Shown: positions 13,837-29,670 of the stretch, one piece after another
Position numbering within the stretch: the stretch's first letter is position 1
Layout of the letters: every line of letters starts with the position of its first letter
DNA from: Candidatus Bathyarchaeota archaeon
GTDB lineage: Archaea; Thermoproteota; Bathyarchaeia; TCS64
Length of the DNA stretch: 64,000 bases
Direction: 5' to 3'
Assembly (NCBI GenBank): GCA_026014815.1
Contig: JAOZHP010000110.1
Span: 1,047 to 65,046, forward strand
The notes under the pieces: model-generated
The model's input: only the letters and a program-made list of their open reading frames with translations
What the model was told of the DNA's origin: nothing
Databases searched by the model: none
Made by a program: the position numbers and the translations under genes

Positions 13837-15000
13837 ATGATGGATGATATTCTGAAGCGGCTGGATGACGCTTACACGGTGAAGCTCAGCGAGGAGATGA
13901 TCGCCATCCCCTCAGTAACAGGAAATGAGGAGGAGCTCAGCCTCTACATTAAGGATAAACTGGAGAGCTACGGCATGAAGACAGAACTCCAGTATATCGC
14001 GGAGGGCAGACCCAACATCTATGGCATATTAGACTGGGGGAAGCCGGGTAAACGCCTAAACTACAACGCCCACACTGACACAGTTCCAGCTGGTGACGAC
14101 TGGGAGACAGACCCATTCAAAGCAGTCATCAAAGAGGGAAAACTCTACGGTCGAGGTGCCTGCGATATGAAGACAGGTATCGCGTGTACACTGAACATGT
14201 TAAAGGCAATCATGGACAGCGGTGTTGAGCTGGCTGGTGAGCTGAGTTTTAGTGGAGTAGTGGACCAAGAGGCCACCGATATCGGCGCATGGGCGATGAT
14301 GAAAGAAGAAAAATGGAGAAGCCTAGACGGCGTCGTCCTCACTTATAGTTACTGTGGCGACGAGACCAAACCCATCCCCCTCGGCCTCACAGGCAAGGTA
14401 CTATACAATGTGAACGTCAAAGGCAAGGCTGCCCACGGTTTCAGGCCTCATCTAGGAGTCAACGCAGTTGAGGACGCGGCCAAGATAATCGCCAACCTAG
14501 ACAAACTGCGTCTGATGGAGCACCCGGACTTCGGATCAGGCACCGTATGCACGTTGAAGACAGAGGGCGGGTATAAAAAGTACAGCGTCGTTGTCCCAGA
14601 GAGCGCCCGCTTTGAGGTGAATAGGTTAATCGTACCCGGTGAGAGCATCCAGTACGCTGTGGATGACATGGAGAGGCTGGTGAAAGAGCTGAGTCTCAAA
14701 TCCGAGGTGGATGTGGGAATCAAGCCACCCAAATATGAGCCGTACACAGCGTCAAAGGAAGACCCCCTCATGAGGATACTTGACGAGGTGTACAAGGAGG
14801 TCATGGGGAAGGAGCCCCTGTACGAGCACGCGTACGGCATCACCAACGCCAATATCTTCCAAGGAGAGCAAGGCATCGAGTGCATCCACATCGGCCCCCA
14901 GCGCGGGGGGGCGCATCAACCCAACGAGCATGTGAAGTTGGAGTGGCTTCCCCCCGTCTCTGAGATGTACGCTAGAATAGCTCTCGGGTACCTCTCCTGA
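13837..15000 (+). CDS. M20 family metallopeptidase, second tandem paralog
   Basis: HTDTVP and CDMKTG motifs. Collinear with 12595..13797. Confidence 0.75.
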   Translation: MMDDILKRLDDAYTVKLSEEMIAIPSVTGNEEELSLYIKDKLESYGMKTELQYIAEGRPNIYGILDWGKPGKRLNYNAHTDTVPAGDDWETDPFKAVIKEGKLYGRGACDMKTGIACTLNMLKAIMDSGVELAGELSFSGVVDQEATDIGAWAMMKEEKWRSLDGVVLTYSYCGDETKPIPLGLTGKVLYNVNVKGKAAHGFRPHLGVNAVEDAAKIIANLDKLRLMEHPDFGSGTVCTLKTEGGYKKYSVVVPESARFEVNRLIVPGESIQYAVDDMERLVKELSLKSEVDVGIKPPKYEPYTASKEDPLMRILDEVYKEVMGKEPLYEHAYGITNANIFQGEQGIECIHIGPQRGGAHQPNEHVKLEWLPPVSEMYARIALGYLS

Positions 15001-20867: not shown

Positions 20868-21912
20868 ACTTTTTTACTCCGCGTGTGTGTTCAAGCATCG
20901 TTTCCTCGCAGGCAATGTGGCTTGAACAAGTGTCATATGGATACCTTCAACCGGGTTTAAATACGTCACGGTGAACCCCGGGAGGCGCACACGCACCTCG
21001 GTTTAAAATAGTCATATAATTATCAAGTCGTGGCGAATCCGCGCTTCGCGCGCTCATGAATAAAAAGACTGGTTATTTCTATAGAAATGTCTCCGGTTCC
21101 TTCCATGCGCTGTACATTCTATTCAGCCTCTCTGATATCTCAAGTATCCGCGGCCTCCGAACCCAATCCTAGGTCAGTAGACTAGTGGGGTTCAACCTAT
21201 ACCCCCATTTTTTTCTCGTATAATCGCAGTCCCGACTTGATGGAAAACATCCTTCGTTGAGCAGAGCGCGGAACGTCTCCACGTTAACAAATATGGCCAG
21301 ACCTCCACCAATGTACATGAACTCGGAGAGCAAAAAGCAGGGTTCCCGCGTTGAAGCGCTGAGTACCCGTAAAGGGGTAGCTCACTTCGCTGCTCGTTTC
21401 TCTTTACGCTTTTTTCTTTTTTCTTTTCTTTCCTTCTTGGTCAAAGGTTTCTTCTTAGCACTACGCATACCCAATTCAATCGCCTCATACACTGATTGTA
21501 ATTGATGACACATAAGTCTATCAATCGATGATGACGCTCATCGCCTCAGATGGTGTCCAATCATCTTCAGTCTATGATACAATTGTGGTGAAGTGGATAA
21601 AATATTCAATTGAAAAGGATGGTGATATCATCACGAGATATAAATTTCGAACCTCACCTCCAGCACCATGTTTCTGGTGGAAAAGAGACATACTCACCGG
21701 TTAACATACACGTTTTTGTGCTTACTGGACGGCGTTTGTGAGCACATTTTGATCCAAACGGGGATGTTTTATGGCTTCTTTTAGGTAATAAGGCTTGTAT
21801 TTCCCTTTCCTTAGGTACCCCCCCGCCCCCCTGTTAGCGGCTATTCTTGTTTTAGGATAGGAAAGATGGTGATATCCTCTTTTAATCCATAATTTTTGGG
21901 GGTTTAACCAAG

Positions 21913-22458: not shown

Positions 22459-22500
22459 CTCTTTCTTTATCCATAATTTTGTCCACAATTCACTGTAGAT

Positions 22501-23519: not shown

Positions 23520-23990
23520 TCATTCCTGTAACTGCTGTACCGCCATATCGGGATTGTAGAAGATCTTGAAGACCTTAACCTTCCCATCCTTGAAATCCAC
23601 GATCCAAACCGCCACCATTTCAACCCTCTTCCCAGTCGCAGGAATCCCGGCAACGTCCTCACCAGTATGAACACCAGTCCAGTGAACCTCCGCTACAACC
23701 GTATCACCCTTGGAGATCATGCGATCCACCCGATAGACGCCATCAGACCATATCGAGAAACTTCCCTCGAACAACTCACGTAATCCCTTTTTGTCCCGTT
23801 TCTCTCCTCCAACCGTTTGAACAGTCACATCATCGGTGAAGTACTCCAGCATCTCGTCAAGTTTACGAAGATCTATCAATTCCACAATCTTGCCGATGAT
23901 CTTCTCGTTCTCACTCTCAGTCAATTCTTCATCACTCTTCCCATTCTTGTTGGTATTTGTATAGCCCCCCACCTCGGGGCTAGGTTCCAC
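23520..23990 (-). CDS. SnoaL-like/ester-cyclase (NTF2-fold) protein. The N-terminal 25 codons are encoded by repeat B, so the true start is uncertain.
   Basis: NTF2-like pattern IGKIVELIDLRKLDEMLEYFTDDVTVQ. Confidence 0.55.
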   Translation of the reverse strand: MEPSPEVGGYTNTNKNGKSDEELTESENEKIIGKIVELIDLRKLDEMLEYFTDDVTVQTVGGEKRDKKGLRELFEGSFSIWSDGVYRVDRMISKGDTVVAEVHWTGVHTGEDVAGIPATGKRVEMVAVWIVDFKDGKVKVFKIFYNPDMAVQQLQE

Positions 23991-24164: not shown

Positions 24165-24974
24165 CTATTTTTTAGATTTCAACCTTGTATTTGATAATGA
24201 ATATAAACTGTTTTTGGTCTCTTTCAGGATTTCTAAGTCTAAATCCATTAGAAATGTGTCACAATCTGCCTTTGTTAATCTGCTTAACCCAATTGCTCTT
24301 GCCCAGTCAATACATTGATCAACTAACGAAGAAAGTTCCTCTCTTTCCTGTTTTATCCTCTCAAGATATTGATTTTCTAATCTCAATTGCATTTTTTCAA
24401 GAATGTCTCTTTCCGTATCTGCTAGCAAGTCTAGTTCATATTCAGATGTAAACCTACGAACATCAACAAGTCGTGCTTTATCCAGACCTCTTTCGAATAG
24501 CCAGTCACCAAATCTATCAACATAAGACGGTAACTCTGCTCGTTCTAGTTCCATTCGTGTCTGCCTTTCTTGTTCTCGTTCTTTTTCCTGCTCCATCGAG
24601 AACAGTGCCCTAGCTTTGCTAATTTTCATCTCGATTTCAAAAGGTAGTCCGAACCTTTCATCGAGTCCTTTTGATCGTAAAAACAAGTCAAACATATTAT
24701 AGGACGGTTGAATTTCTGGGTCTGGAAACTCAGTTTGTATGAAAGTTACATACTCAGAAGCTAAGTCTTGAGGGGAGATCGTCTTAAGATAATCTGGGAC
24801 TTCTCTAGGCGATATTTCAGGATAATATTCTATTTGCCCTGATTCAATATCTTCCTCTGAAGGGATAGCCGTTTGAATTTTTTGTAGAAAATTTACGACC
24901 ATGCAGTTTTCATCGAGCCACATAACACATTGATTGCCTTTACATTCTTCTTTATAGAAGGGACAAAAACTCAC
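24165..24974 (-). CDS. Hypothetical protein with an N-terminal Cys4 zinc-finger-like motif (CPFYKEECKGNQCVMWLDENC), an acidic and coiled-coil middle, and a C-terminal coiled coil. Downstream partner of the nuclease gene.
   Basis: ORF track. Overlaps the upstream gene by 4 nt (ATGA), consistent with an operon. Confidence 0.55.
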   Translation of the reverse strand: MSFCPFYKEECKGNQCVMWLDENCMVVNFLQKIQTAIPSEEDIESGQIEYYPEISPREVPDYLKTISPQDLASEYVTFIQTEFPDPEIQPSYNMFDLFLRSKGLDERFGLPFEIEMKISKARALFSMEQEKEREQERQTRMELERAELPSYVDRFGDWLFERGLDKARLVDVRRFTSEYELDLLADTERDILEKMQLRLENQYLERIKQEREELSSLVDQCIDWARAIGLSRLTKADCDTFLMDLDLEILKETKNSLYSLSNTRLKSKK

Positions 24975-25885
24975 TTTTCTGACACCCTCCCAAGTTCTTC
25001 AAAAGCATTCTCAATCTGAGCAGAAAGTTTTCTCTTGTATTCTTTGACAACAGAGGTTATCTTATCAATGTCTCGAATATTGCGAGTTTTCAGGCTTTCA
25101 GCGGTATTATTTATTGTATCAAGTGATTTGCTGAGTGTTTGAATTTCAGTAATAATATCGTTAACTTTTGTGAGTGTTTTACTCAAATCCTCAGTTGGCT
25201 GATCCTGTATCTTGAGAGTTTCCAACTCGATGAGTTTCTTAACAATATAGAAGGCAAACAAGTGACCAGAATGGTTTAACTCGCTCTCCACCACGAAAAC
25301 TGCGGTTCGGTCCAAGTTATGTTTTAAATTAATGCAACTTGAACACTTGGAAATTCTCGAACGAAGAGATACAAAGATTCCATATTTTGTGTCTCTAACT
25401 TCCATATCTCTCCAGAACTTGTCTACTTGTGAGGTAGGGACTATACCCGTGTAGTCTTTTACTTCAATTAGAACAGGCGTGCTAGAACTGGCGACAGTAG
25501 CTAGAATGTCTGAGTGTCTACCGATTCCTGAAACATCCTCGAAAGAATCATCCATAAAATGTTCTTCAAAACTTTTGAAAACAGCTTCCTCAGTAAATTC
25601 TCCTCGTTTTGCTGGGGTCATTACTGTTGGAACAATGTGCTTTAGTTGTTCTCTAATCGTATTGATGTCTTGTCTGAGTGGTGAAAAGAATGCTTCTACT
25701 GATTCTTTACTAGTACTAATTGAAGCATGTGTAACGACCATATCGCCAAGAATAATATATTTTTCAATTATACTGTCTCGCTGTTCTTCTGGAATAGTTT
25801 CAACAATTTTAATCGCTGTTGGGTCGGTCAATGTAAGCTCAAGTTTTACTTCGTTTTGGGGTTGGTTGAGAATCATTAGTTTCAA
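24971..25885 (-). CDS. PD-(D/E)xK (Mrr/Hjc-like restriction-endonuclease fold) nuclease-domain protein with a C-terminal coiled coil
   Basis: Pattern GEFTEEAV...SDILATV...PVLIEVKDY fits E...D...ExK spacing. Residues about 200-304 are heptad-rich. Confidence 0.55.
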   Translation of the reverse strand: MKLMILNQPQNEVKLELTLTDPTAIKIVETIPEEQRDSIIEKYIILGDMVVTHASISTSKESVEAFFSPLRQDINTIREQLKHIVPTVMTPAKRGEFTEEAVFKSFEEHFMDDSFEDVSGIGRHSDILATVASSSTPVLIEVKDYTGIVPTSQVDKFWRDMEVRDTKYGIFVSLRSRISKCSSCINLKHNLDRTAVFVVESELNHSGHLFAFYIVKKLIELETLKIQDQPTEDLSKTLTKVNDIITEIQTLSKSLDTINNTAESLKTRNIRDIDKITSVVKEYKRKLSAQIENAFEELGRVSEK

Positions 25886-26396: not shown

Positions 26397-26579
26397 CTAC
26401 TCGTCTTTAAAAGCAGCTTTAACTTTCGCTACCAGTTCGGGCGTGAGTTCAATCTCTGGATGTACGTTTTTTGCGTGTTCAGCAATAAGTTCCATGAGAC
26501 CTTCCTCGGTTTCGCTAGAGGCTGACCAATCACAGTCCACACCTACATCTCTACAAGCATATGTTTTTACCATCTTCAT
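26397..26579 (-). CDS. DUF1059-like small metal-binding protein
   Basis: 60 aa; MKMVKTYACRDVGVDCDWSASSETEEGLMELIAEHAKNVH matches the DUF1059 signature. Confidence 0.6.
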   Translation of the reverse strand: MKMVKTYACRDVGVDCDWSASSETEEGLMELIAEHAKNVHPEIELTPELVAKVKAAFKDE

Positions 26580-26604
26580 TTCTCCTTGTTCTTTCTTTCA
26601 CTTC

Positions 26605-26672
26605 TTGGTAATTGTATAGCTCCCAACTCCGGAGCTAGGACTCCACCAGCTAACCAGCAGAACCTTGAGTGT
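26605..26672. repeat. Repeat family B copy 3 (acts as the 5' leader of the DUF1059 gene)
   Basis: Homologous to the other B copies. An in-frame TGA upstream of the ATG shows it is untranslated here. Confidence 0.7.
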
Positions 26673-26821
26673 CAATAGACTCAAATAATATTTAACAACT
26701 TGTAAAGGATTTAATGATTTTATTTTCTTATTGTATATAATATTCGTGAAATCCAGCGTTTTGATAACGAGCTTCGACAATATTCAAATAACTATCTCCT
26801 CGACTTTTATCCTACTAAATT

Positions 26822-26850
26822 CAGCATCTGAGTGGTTTCAAGAAAAAAAG
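26822..26850. repeat. Repeat family A copy 4, followed by a tRNA T-arm-like fragment (GGGAGGGACTCGAACCC, 26850-26867)
   Basis: Same core. The adjacent segment is the reverse complement of a GGGTTCGAGTCCC T-arm. Confidence 0.7.
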
Positions 26851-26932
26851 GGAGGGACTCGAACCCTACTATATGTGGTGATATCACCCGATATCTCCTT
26901 TTTTTATATATCGTATGTAGGACCATGAAGAA

Positions 26933-26993
26933 TTTTTTATCTCAATATGACAAATTACTTGAAGCCAAAAAAAATATGGTGCAGGGGGTGGGA
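26933..26993. repeat. Distal att-like direct repeat: a copy of the 3' end of tRNA-Leu(CAG) plus about 40 nt of its 3' flank
   Basis: TTTTTATCTCAATATGACAAATTACTTGAAGCCAAAAAAAATATGGTGCAGGGGGTGGGA here, against TTTTTTCTCAATATTACAGGTTACTTGAAGCGAAAATAATGGTGCGGAGGGTGGGA at 29545-29605. Confidence 0.7.
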
Positions 26994-27034
26994 TGCCCAC
27001 ACAAAAATACTAGTAAAAACCGTGTGTGAGCATA

Positions 27035-27568
27035 TTATAATGGGAAGAGTTCTCTTTCTAATTCGTTCATCTTCTCCCTGAATCGCACATTAAAATCGCT
27101 AACCAATTCGAGATACGTCGCAAACCACGCCTCAAATACTATAACAACTTCATGAAGCCGCTTTGCCTCGTCACTATTTTTTTCTTCATCAGAGAGATTG
27201 TTCCACTCATCAAGAATTGATTCAATAACATCTAGCTTGCCAGTGACAAATCGTTCAGATATGTCTACGGTCCTCTTGAATTCGTCAAAGAAGGATTTTG
27301 CTCGTTCACCATACAACTGGGTACGGGAGCCTGGTTTAGACTCTTTTCTGATCAAGCCCCGTTGCTCTAAATTTGATAAATACCTTGATATTTGTGATCT
27401 TGAGTATCCGGTTTTTTCTGAGATCTTTTCTTGAGTAAGTGGTTCAGGAGATAATACGATCATAGAGTAGATACAGGCTATCGTTGGCTCGGTTCCCCTG
27501 AATCTGACTATGTCCTCAAGAACCCCTAGGAACGCCTCATGTAGTTTTTCGTACCCGTTGTTTGTCAT
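27035..27568 (-). CDS. Winged-helix (MarR/TrmB-like) transcriptional regulator
   Basis: HTH segment ISEKTGYSRSQISRYLSNLEQRGLIRK. Confidence 0.6.
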   Translation of the reverse strand: MTNNGYEKLHEAFLGVLEDIVRFRGTEPTIACIYSMIVLSPEPLTQEKISEKTGYSRSQISRYLSNLEQRGLIRKESKPGSRTQLYGERAKSFFDEFKRTVDISERFVTGKLDVIESILDEWNNLSDEEKNSDEAKRLHEVVIVFEAWFATYLELVSDFNVRFREKMNELERELFPL

Positions 27569-27682
27569 TGTTATCTTCTCTTATTGTTTTATAGAAAGTT
27601 CCATAGTGCTACACTAGAAAAGTGAGGATATTATAGTTACTTTCTCTACCATATATAATGTAAAACCTATTTGAAAGCTTTG

Positions 27683-28606
27683 TTATTCTTTCTTTAATTC
27701 TTTTCTCTCTATTTTATTTAATATAACGCCACATGATTTACACTTATAATCAACATCATAAACCTTCGAAACTACATCATTACTTTCATCTTCTTTAATT
27801 AATTTTGATTCAAAATATTCCAAAGACCCAATATTATTACAAACCTCACATCTAGTTCTTTCACTTATTTCTAATATAGACAATGGAATTAACCCCAAAA
27901 TAATTGATATACCCAAATATGTAGGATATCCTGTTAATATATCTCTATTGAAATAAATGGCATAAAAAATAGGGGTTTCAAATAATACAAATAAAACCAC
28001 CATTATAATTTTTTCTTTTATTAGCGGAGTTGTTTGATTATCATATACATATTGTGAATATTTTTCAATTAAACTACTCACAACATTAAACCATGAAGAC
28101 CCCTGCGGAAATTCATCTATTGATAGTGGCGAATTTGAAGTAATATCCTGAATAAATGTAACTTTTGATACCATATCAAACCATTGATCTCTGTGTTTTT
28201 TTAATTCTGAAGGAGTGTATTTTCTTCCTTTGGGATGATTTGGGTTATATGAACCCACATCGGCATGACAATCAAAACAGAGAGGAATCCCATTATCCTC
28301 ATCGTTTCCTCCATCAGGTTCTATATGATGAATTTCGATTTTTGTACCCTTGAAAGTTCTACAAAGACAACAACGCCTATTACTTTTTACTAATAAAGAT
28401 TCAGCTACAATTGGTGGAAATGGTTTAGGAGGCATTGAAATTACCTTTAATTTTAGTATTATTTTAGGGTTGTTAAGAATTTGGACAGATTTTGTAAGGA
28501 CCATTGCCCCCCCCGCTAATTTCTTCGGGTGAAACTCAGAAGGTGGGGGGGCTGCGAAATTAATTATACTTGTATGTGTAACTGAAAGTGATATTGATGG
28601 AGCCAA
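27683..28606 (-). CDS. HNH endonuclease domain fused to two TM helices and a C-terminal zinc ribbon. True start is probably the Met near 28435.
   Basis: HNH motif CCLCRTF...IEIHHIEPDGGNDEDNGIPLCFDCH. Hydrophobic helices IIMVVLFVLF and GISIILGLIPL. C-terminal CEVCN...CKSCG. Confidence 0.55.
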   Translation of the reverse strand: MAPSISLSVTHTSIINFAAPPPSEFHPKKLAGGAMVLTKSVQILNNPKIILKLKVISMPPKPFPPIVAESLLVKSNRRCCLCRTFKGTKIEIHHIEPDGGNDEDNGIPLCFDCHADVGSYNPNHPKGRKYTPSELKKHRDQWFDMVSKVTFIQDITSNSPLSIDEFPQGSSWFNVVSSLIEKYSQYVYDNQTTPLIKEKIIMVVLFVLFETPIFYAIYFNRDILTGYPTYLGISIILGLIPLSILEISERTRCEVCNNIGSLEYFESKLIKEDESNDVVSKVYDVDYKCKSCGVILNKIERKELKKE

Positions 28607-28896
28607 ATCTAAGAGGGAGAGTCGAAGCGTTTCTTGATAGATTATTAACTGATGAAATATTTTCTAATGTAATGCGAGGAATTACTACACTTAAAAACGA
28701 GTGGATGTTTGAGTCAATTGATAGCTTCTATTTAGGAGTAATATTCGGATTAACAACAGAATATATCTTACGTGATTATTCTGACCAAGGAAAAGATATC
28801 GAAGACTGGGAGAAGTTATCAAATGAAACAGTCTCTGTTCTTACTAGAAGATTATCAGAGATTAGAAGACAATTCGAACTACACATCAATAAGTAA
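28588..28896 (+). CDS. Hypothetical protein
   Basis: ORF track only. Confidence 0.3.
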   Translation: MILMEPNLRGRVEAFLDRLLTDEIFSNVMRGITTLKNEWMFESIDSFYLGVIFGLTTEYILRDYSDQGKDIEDWEKLSNETVSVLTRRLSEIRRQFELHINK

Positions 28897-29009
28897 TAAT
28901 AACACCATACTTTAACATCCAAAGCCAACATTCAATTATTTTTTAAATCTGGCAAACCCTCTTAGAAGTTTTACATAAAAAGTTTTACGAAATAAATTCT
29001 ATGAATAAA

Positions 29010-29294
29010 TTATTTGATTTTAACATTTTTCATGTTTCTCAGTTCATCAGCAAATCCATCTATTTGTTCAATTATCTTCTCAATATATTCTCTGATGTAA
29101 TCTATTCCCTGAATAGGCGGAAGTTCATCAACTGTCTCGATTGTAAACGAAAACTTCCCTGACTCAATGAGAGCGTCAATCTCAGCAGCTCTTTCTGGAT
29201 CAATATACGTTAGTTCATCATAAGCTAATTTAAGTGATTCAAGAGAAATATCTACTAACCTAGATAATCTCTCAATCAAATGGTTCTCAGTCAT
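29010..29294 (-). CDS. Hypothetical acidic protein
   Basis: ORF track only. Confidence 0.3.
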   Translation of the reverse strand: MTENHLIERLSRLVDISLESLKLAYDELTYIDPERAAEIDALIESGKFSFTIETVDELPPIQGIDYIREYIEKIIEQIDGFADELRNMKNVKIK

Positions 29295-29544: not shown

Positions 29545-29605
29545 TTTTTTTCTCAATATTACAGGTTACTTGAAGCGAAAATAATGGTGCGGAGGGTGGG
29601 ACTCG
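29545..29605. repeat. Proximal att-like direct repeat (the 3' end of tRNA-Leu plus its flank)
   Basis: See 26933-26993. Confidence 0.7.
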
Positions 29606-29670
29606 AACCCACGAAGGACTAGTCCATCAGGACCTGAACCTGACCCCTTTGACCACTTGGGAACCCCCGC
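29585..29670 (-). tRNA. tRNA-Leu (anticodon CAG), encoded CCA, long variable arm
   Basis: Hand-folded cloverleaf GCGGGGG/CCUCCGC acceptor, anticodon loop UUCAGGU, variable stem GGAC/GUCC, T-arm GUGGGUUCGAGUCCCAC. Confidence 0.9.

Follow-up and report, generated by a model that had tools for sequence, protein, structure and literature searches.

A putative membrane-anchored HNH nuclease of a Bathyarchaeota contig belongs to a rare archaeal family in which a two-helix, zinc-ribbon module carries interchangeable enzymes

A 64 kb stretch of a contig from a Candidatus Bathyarchaeota metagenome-assembled genome, referred to here as the window, contains on its minus strand, at 27683-28435, a gene for a protein that joins an N-terminal HNH nuclease domain to two transmembrane (TM) helices and a C-terminal zinc ribbon. 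We read its product as a candidate single-protein, membrane-anchored defence or abortive-infection effector whose N-terminal enzyme, or warhead, can be swapped, and we give this reading a probability of about 0.55. Comparison with related sequences suggests that the finding goes beyond a lone odd fusion, the protein being by its sequence a member of a rare archaeal family of putative membrane-associated abortive-infection or defence effectors. The family sharing the C-terminal module is probably an undescribed family of antiviral proteins; its overall layout is already known. The gene and the parts of its product are as follows, with coordinates in the window.

27683..28606, minus strand: mechanical open reading frame (ORF) from the program's ORF list, identical to GenBank MCW4050567.1 (NWE89_12615, "hypothetical protein", 307 amino acids (aa), TTG start)
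27683..28435, minus strand: HNH-2TM-Zn-ribbon gene, 250 aa plus stop, with a homology-supported ATG at 28435
28163..28435, minus strand: HNH (beta-beta-alpha-Me) nuclease domain, residues 1-91, of a Cap5/McrA-like clade (Pfam HNH, McrA 6ghc, Cap5 similarity, predicted local distance difference test (pLDDT) score 94-98)
28028..28162, minus strand: disordered linker (residues ~95-107) and conserved, predicted cytoplasmic pre-TM helix (114-131; "IDE.P...N..S..E.YS"), from AlphaFold; the helix aligns with "GID.E....GRKY...YG" of other carriers
27857..28027, minus strand: two TM helices, residues 137-161 and 171-193, with a loop of ~10 aa poor in Lys and Arg (K/R), from hydropathy and the AlphaFold hairpin; predicted N-in/C-in
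27686..27856, minus strand: C-terminal Cys4 zinc ribbon, a three-stranded beta sheet with CxxC at 196-199 and 232-235; the Cys residues are invariant in 18 modules
28436..28606, minus strand: in-frame upstream extension of the 307-aa model, with no counterpart in any homologue; holds a TATA-like TAAAATAATA and AGGT

The region that follows the nuclease domain, residues 95-250, is matched by no model in Pfam, NCBIfam, PADLOC or PHROGs. A profile of this C-terminal module, searched exhaustively with HMMER against 1.84 billion cluster representatives, matched 36 proteins at E<=1e-3. Two of these are members of the form seen in the window (HNH type A), and one or more, among them an ankyrin-repeat protein, are spurious. 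E-values range down to 1e-72 inside the subfamily and from 1e-18 to 1e-6 for carriers with other N-terminal domains; a word-indexed search with the same profile found four proteins only. The longer matches bear the module C-terminally, after N-terminal domains that differ from carrier to carrier.

Schlafen/AlbA_2 (SLFN_AlbA_2): P0090 (1.6e-25), P0095, P0101 and P0120
TIR (TIR_2): P0094 (6e-17) and P0124
TIR-like by eye, without a PADLOC match: P0125 and P0126
Second HNH type (type B), ZorE-like: P0091, P0093, P0097 and P0102
Unassigned N-terminal domain: P0105

No HEPN carrier occurs among the module matches whose N-terminal domains were examined. Eighteen modules can be aligned end to end, through the pre-TM helix ("GID.E....GRKY...YG"), a Pro-containing first TM helix, a second TM helix and the ribbon ("C..C...SKL..EK...RNTY.C..C"), and the four ribbon Cys residues are the only columns invariant across them. 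Named organisms with the module are TACK archaea (Bathyarchaeia and Nitrososphaeria). A viral or plasmid origin was considered and rejected, since IMG/VR, INPHARED and PLSDB hold no relatives of the module. The module is rare, and it recurs in TACK archaea on swapped N-terminal enzymes. A constant module combined with interchangeable nuclease, NADase-type and RNase-type domains is a pattern typical of immune effectors such as those of CBASS (cyclic-oligonucleotide-based antiphage signalling system), Thoeris and Avs. Our literature search turned up no account of the module family or of the carriers with HNH, TIR and Schlafen domains.

By its sequence the warhead in the window is a Cap5/McrA-like HNH domain. 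The motif, CCLC...HH...N...N...CFDCH, is complete (C22xxC25, H36-H37, N44, N48 and C53xxC56-H57). It includes the catalytic His (the second of the HH pair) and the metal-ligand Asn/His motif of the HNH superfamily, together with the structural zinc site of that superfamily (C22-x2-C25 plus C53-x2-C56), and five of these residues (H37, N48, C53, C56 and H57) are invariant across all 88 relatives. The original prediction, made from the sequence of the window without database searches, had recognized a canonical HNH motif in a soluble N-terminal domain and proposed a comparison with McrA. The searches agree on both counts: the 250-aa product scores 21.8 bits against a cut-off of 21.4 for Pfam HNH (PF01844; the 307-aa ORF scores 21.3), a profile of the 88 relatives matches the HNH domain of Escherichia coli McrA (6ghc) at 4.5e-8, and the catalytic His and Asn, at H37 and N48, are intact. 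HNH families of PHROGs (best 8e-7) and the HNH region of IscB (7e-7) are matched as well. The domain is 47% identical over 119 aa (pairwise E 2e-34) to the HNH domain of P0057, a Methanobacterium protein encoded in a complete type II CBASS operon (HNH-SAVED, SMODS, Cap2, Cap3), and the top Foldseek match in the PDB is Cap5 (9nlg_B), with a probability of 1.0 but an E-value of 0.013. The PADLOC model mREase_IV (type IV restriction) is matched by 55 of the 88 relatives. Some 85 other proteins share just the first ~90-120 residues and end in different C-termini: HEAT repeats, AAA_16, unknown domains and, once (P0057), SAVED.

Among these proteins with a Cap5-like HNH domain (P0006-P0089), HEAT repeats (PF13646/PF02985) are the commonest C-terminal partner, present in 13-18 of the 88 relatives, and AAA_16 and kinase-TPR fusions also occur. 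The HNH-HEAT architecture appears to be uncharacterised.

The AlphaFold model built on the 88-sequence alignment has a mean pLDDT of 84, with values of 94-98 for the HNH domain (residues 1-91), 83-93 for the TM helical hairpin and 81-94 for the ribbon strands, which lie at 204-217, 221-232 and 238-248; a model from a 5-sequence alignment gave an HNH pLDDT of ~32 and was discarded. Hydrophobic segments at about 141-163 and 170-192, with Kyte-Doolittle 19-residue means of 2.2 and 1.9, occur in all five family members, and two hydrophobic helices with a K/R-poor loop and K/R-rich flanks are seen in every one of the 18 modules. Hydropathy and AlphaFold thus both give two helices, and with the four invariant Cys residues they bear out the pair of TM helices and the C-terminal CxxC...CxxC ribbon of the original prediction; a membrane-tethered HNH nuclease, which it had regarded as unusual, is what sequence and structure model together suggest. 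Because the loop is poor and the flanks are rich in K/R, and no signal peptide is present, both the nuclease and the ribbon are predicted to be cytoplasmic.

The true gene is most likely 27683..28435, 250 aa, to judge from its homologues. When 90%-identity clusters were compared, among 5.8 billion searched, the full architecture was shared with only four others (P0002, P0003, P0004 and P0005), which are 42-64% identical to the window protein. All four full-length homologues have the N-terminus MPPKxF (P0004 once it is read from its proper ATG), and DNA similarity between the window and the homologue loci ends at 28436. We therefore place the start at 28435; starts at 28504 or 28606 are rejected on the same two observations. 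The original prediction had the gene running over 27683..28606, and while this is correct as the span of the ORF, translation beginning at its upstream end is at odds with the homologues. The 57-codon extension is probably non-coding. It contains the TATA-like TAAAATAATA at 28457-28466, which is -31 to -22 from the ATG at 28435 and which we infer to be the promoter of the nuclease gene, and AGGT stands 8 nucleotides (nt) before that ATG. The N-terminus of GenBank MCW4050567.1 is then probably 57 codons too long, reading through a hairpin of C8 and G7 runs that is described below, and the comparison offers a correction of that gene model. An open stretch of 57 codons is somewhat unusual in AT-rich DNA (our estimate is p~0.02-0.05), and a longer isoform is therefore conceivable.

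Relatives of the nuclease, or other carriers of its module, have the following neighbours.

L001-L004, HNH type A: TIR protein, small TM protein, 116-aa Cas1 fragment
L005, HNH type A: Cas1 truncated at its N-terminus; a 1249-aa protein without an assigned function
L009, HNH type B: flanked by PIN and HEPN_AbiV genes
L010, TIR: a 357-aa gene and a DUF6036 gene follow
L011 (Candidatus Nitrosotenuis), TIR: Multi_ubiq / Prok-E2_E / ThiF operon (Ubl-E2-E1) and another TIR protein; further neighbours are a CARF-like HFX_2341 regulator, an SMC-like ATPase and a 360-aa plus DUF6036 pair
L012 (Candidatus Bathyarchaeota), HNH type B: a nucleotidyltransferase-like ORF (without a Pfam match) and a Cap15 gene at a distance of 2 kb; adjoins a GIY-YIG gene

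The original prediction had noted a likeness to abortive-infection or toxin effectors. The comparisons favor that likeness, with an HNH domain in the Cap5 clade of CBASS, a module also found on TIR, Schlafen/AlbA_2 and a second HNH type, and defence genes among the neighbours.

A decayed Cas1 gene lies beside two different nuclease homologues, on opposite sides and in opposite orientations: a 116-aa internal fragment in L001 (8940-9290) and a 240-aa, N-terminally truncated copy in L005 (3890-4612). No other cas genes or arrays were seen. The nuclease gene may have inserted into, or replaced, a dying adaptation module at these two loci. A casposon remnant in the window was rejected, as neither the Cas1 fragments nor the 1249-aa, TIR and TM neighbours of the homologues gave any tblastn match there; the 1249-aa protein of L005 has no polymerase domain. 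A gene pair recurs near the TIR-2TM-Zn-ribbon gene in two unrelated contigs (L010, 1146-2721; L011, 8156-9740) and consists of a 357-360-aa protein without a Pfam match and a 170-aa DUF6036 nucleotidyltransferase. The pair could be a partner of the TIR carrier or a separate module of toxin-antitoxin type.

The position of the nuclease gene in the window was compared with related contigs around two features.

29585..29670, minus strand: tRNA-Leu(CAG), found by ARAGORN and Rfam; its 3' flank is the insertion hot spot
26849..26866, no strand assigned: possible attachment (att) remnant, an 18-nt copy matching the tRNA-Leu T-arm/acceptor at 29593-29610 in 17 of 18 positions

The gene lies within a stretch of 33-40% guanine plus cytosine (GC), at ~20.9-29.6 kb, against ~50% elsewhere, and this low-GC stretch lies directly 3' of tRNA-Leu(CAG). 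The arrangement gcvT-gcvH-tRNA-Leu is kept in 11 related contigs (GcvH 73-82% identical). None of the 11 shares any gene with the window beyond the tRNA-Leu gene, and the 3' flank differs in each. The closest nuclease homologue, at locus L006, lies ~290 nt after a partial type-II tRNA that was identified by eye. From these comparisons the 3' flank of tRNA-Leu(CAG), downstream of gcvT-gcvH (loci L018-L035), is identified as a recurrent insertion hot spot in the lineage, and the nuclease gene as cargo of a variable, tRNA-linked island, a conclusion with good support. The original prediction had placed the gene more specifically in an att-bounded segment. The putative att copy, which is short and has one mismatch, would mark the distal end of a 2.7-kb segment; the att search also found a shared 40-nt repeat (85%) in a different order. 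Scans of ORFs between 21.9 and 29.3 kb turned up no integrase domain.

At one related locus, L035, a second full tRNA-Leu copy brackets 2.8 kb of DNA of 35-39% GC, which encodes a TM protein and a 444-aa ORF (trypsin-like by eye) and in which an integrase is not present. In the island of the window, two overlapping minus-strand ORFs, 24165-24974 (269 aa) and 24971-25885 (304 aa), could be another pair of defence type; the second has a weak match to Mrr_cat (PD-(D/E)xK; E 0.002) followed by a coiled-coil tail. Between 22493 and 26864, two families of direct repeats of ~50-66 nt, D1 and D2, flank short minus-strand island genes in a cassette-like manner. D1 ("AGCATCTGAGTGGTTTCAAGAAAAAAG") stands just 3' of genes, at 22493, 23455, 26329 and 26814. 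D2 stands just 5' of genes, at 23983, 26244 and 26639, and has a hairpin, GGTTCCAC-N10-GTGGAACC, and a TATA-like element. Neither repeat has a match in Rfam, and copies of both also occur 3' of tRNA-Leu in the relatives L030 and L025.

Several known proteins share parts of this architecture. Cap5 is a DNase without sequence specificity that becomes active when its ligand makes it oligomerise (PMC8568899). The window protein has an HNH domain of the same clade, likewise N-terminal and followed by what would be a regulatory module, but it ends in a 2TM hairpin and zinc ribbon instead of SAVED, and no CD-NTase (SMODS) or nucleotidyltransferase domain was found in the scanned flanking ORFs 24165-25885 and 26397-29294. 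Lacking both SAVED and a cyclase, it does not count as a Cap5, and its activating signal, if any, would not be a known cyclic nucleotide. From E. coli McrA and other McrA-type (type IV) endonucleases, whose HNH catalytic core is similar to its own, it differs in being membrane-anchored by prediction and in having no N-terminal domain that binds modified DNA. Cap15, of CBASS and Pycsar, likewise combines a two-helix membrane hairpin with a small, beta-rich cytoplasmic domain, and in L012 a module carrier has a Cap15 gene 2 kb away. In Cap15, however, it is the TM helices that kill and the beta-barrel that binds the nucleotide signal, whereas the window protein bears an enzymatic warhead and its beta domain is a Cys4 zinc ribbon without a match to Cap15_CD_rec. 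The same order of parts is seen in HEPN-2TM-Zn-ribbon proteins such as Plim_2023 of Planctomyces, with a catalytic domain predicted to be cytoplasmic (Anantharaman et al. 2013, PMC3710099). Compared by architecture only, these too have an N-terminal nucleic-acid-cleaving domain, a TM pair and a C-terminal ribbon, so the layout has precedent; their warhead is a HEPN RNase and they are bacterial.

The reading we favor would work as follows. A Cap5-type, sequence-nonspecific HNH DNase would face the cytoplasm, held at the membrane by the pre-TM helix, the 2TM hairpin and the Cys4 ribbon. The module would be the constant part of a small archaeal family, serving as the anchor and probably also as a sensor or assembly platform, and the N-terminal enzyme (HNH type A, HNH type B, TIR or Schlafen/AlbA_2) would be the interchangeable warhead. 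Tethering and a low oligomeric state would keep the nuclease off the host chromosome, or inactive on it, until a cue linked to infection, either present at the membrane or bound by the zinc ribbon, clustered the module and so made the warhead active. The HNH domain would then degrade DNA, and the invader would be blocked or the cell killed. A broader proposal, to which we lean a little less than evenly, is that the module represents an undescribed infection-sensing membrane platform of TACK archaea that fires interchangeable cytoplasmic warheads, its trigger being read at the membrane and not from a nucleotide messenger. The carriers would then make up a new family of archaeal immune systems encoded by one gene each. 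If the module is a membrane-based sensor, it would provide a second case, unrelated to the bacterial antiphage protein SNIPE, of membrane localisation solving the self/non-self problem for a nuclease. Apart from CRISPR and restriction systems, the antiviral immunity of archaea is little explored, and hardly any of their abortive-infection effectors has been tested. Here a compact module, modelled by no current family or defence library, carries HNH, TIR and Schlafen-type warheads in uncultivated Bathyarchaeia and Nitrososphaeria, and the window protein, at 250 residues, is easy to synthesise and test.

Some observations weigh against our interpretation of the window protein as a defence or abortive-infection effector. 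The evidence is comparative throughout. The window protein itself has no match among PADLOC models at E<=0.001, and its neighbours in the window are not recognisable defence genes, save for the weak Mrr_cat match on ORF 24971-25885. Support from neighbourhoods comes from about five of seven informative loci, several of which are on short contigs, so it is anecdotal. The HNH-type-A form consists of five 90%-identity clusters only, and short, "stand-alone" module matches may be fragments or unrelated proteins with TM segments and a zinc ribbon. The topology is predicted from hydropathy and the positive-inside rule only, and activation through oligomerisation would be an extrapolation from Cap5 and TIR biology.

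The main rival takes SNIPE as its model. SNIPE is a bacterial, membrane-bound antiphage nuclease of architecture TM-DUF4041-GIY-YIG; it is toxic without its TM segment, which prevents self-cleavage, and it cleaves phage DNA at injection (PMC13190303). The window protein would in that case be a nuclease that is competent at all times, with an anchor serving solely to keep it away from the chromosome, and it would cut entering DNA while the host survives. The predicted plan is indeed similar, a single membrane-tethered protein with its catalytic domain in the cytoplasm and an anchor that would plausibly spare host DNA. No domain is shared, however: SNIPE has an N-terminal single pass and a GIY-YIG nuclease, where the archaeal protein has a central 2TM hairpin and an HNH domain, the only domain Pfam finds in it, and it has neither DUF4041 nor a comparable DNA-binding or tape-measure-binding domain. 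Cap5, the closest relative by the HNH domain, is a suicide nuclease that a ligand activates. An entry-site nuclease would fit the HNH version of the architecture but not the TIR and Schlafen/AlbA_2 versions, whose enzymes would not be expected to attack incoming DNA and which argue for a triggered effector; we consider this explanation unlikely. Less likely again is a role outside defence, whether as a membrane nuclease for DNA uptake, repair or turnover or as a selfish, homing-type HNH gene. HNH domains do serve many roles, and the Cas1 fragments that abut two homologues on different sides could reflect gene mobility. Against this stand a very sparse, patchy distribution (five clusters among 5.8 billion) and a variable island, the lack of relatives in viral, phage and plasmid collections, and the swapping of the warhead for TIR and Schlafen domains, unexpected in proteins of uptake, repair or homing.

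Two further explanations involve the surroundings of the gene.

27035..27568, minus strand: GbsR/MarR winged-helix regulator, 114 nt downstream of the nuclease gene
28588..28896, plus strand: hypothetical ORF, 102 aa, candidate coding, divergent from the nuclease gene
29010..29294, minus strand: hypothetical ORF, 94 aa, from the ORF list
28506..28552, no strand assigned: C8...G7 inverted repeat, in the divergent intergenic region between the nuclease gene and ORF 28588..28896

The HNH motif, TM helices, ribbon, winged-helix gene and hairpin were all found where the original prediction had put them, the genes being on the minus strand. A small integrated element could carry these genes as a toxin-antitoxin or addiction cassette, with the HNH protein as toxin, the winged-helix protein or the 102-aa ORF as antitoxin or repressor, and the hairpin as operator. 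The genes are adjacent on one strand in a low-GC segment beside a tRNA gene, and the hairpin lies between divergent genes. The winged-helix protein is a regulator of the proposed type, matching MarR_2/TrmB at ~1e-7, but nothing ties it to the nuclease: tblastn with it found nothing in any nuclease homologue locus. It belongs to a widespread GbsR/MarR family (more than 130 close full-length clusters in Bathy-, Thor- and Promethearchaeota) whose members, in independent loci, are normally divergent from an alpha/beta hydrolase gene amid housekeeping genes. A role as cognate regulator or antitoxin was rejected on these grounds; the gene is probably functionally independent of the nuclease, and its adjacency is best read as coincidental. 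The two hypothetical ORFs have no match in Pfam, PADLOC, NCBIfam or PHROGs and do not occur beside nuclease homologues. With no integrase found and the hairpin not conserved, we give such a cassette little credence.

The remaining alternative, that the hairpin is a phase-variation switch of the nuclease gene, we regard as very improbable. The inverted repeat is real and non-random, though its stem consists of C8 (at 28507) and G7 (at 28545) and not of the 10 bp originally described. Only five G/C runs of at least 7 occur in the window, and the pattern C7-N20-40-G7 occurs once there and in none of 100 shuffles, a co-occurrence far beyond chance; runs of this kind are slippage-prone in principle. 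The folding energy is -24.5 to -27.2 kcal/mol, while the fold of the whole intergenic region is not significant (z-score -0.96). A phase-variable locus would be expected to have its homopolymer tract inside the coding sequence or core promoter. Here both tracts are outside the homology-supported coding sequence and ~40 nt or more upstream of the putative TATA element, and they have no counterpart upstream of any nuclease homologue. We know of no archaeal precedent for a phase-variation switch of this kind. The hairpin had been placed in the leader, just upstream of the likely start. It is instead 71-117 nt upstream of the ATG at 28435, between two divergent TATA-like elements and upstream of the probable core promoter of what is likely a short-leader or leaderless gene. 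A known RNA family was rejected as well, as the hairpin matches none in Rfam and has no counterpart upstream of homologues. A different short, G+C-rich repeat, not homologous to this hairpin, is found in the AT-rich promoter region upstream of the P0004 homologue (L001, 7738-7904), where two copies of ATGCGCGCGC(G) stand ~160 nt apart, the second abutting the ATG. Apart from the hairpin, long G/C runs are confined in the window to a G7 and a C6, 45 nt apart, at 14905/14950 (14905-14955), and a C7 and a C6 at 21818/21826 (21818-21831), inside the island.

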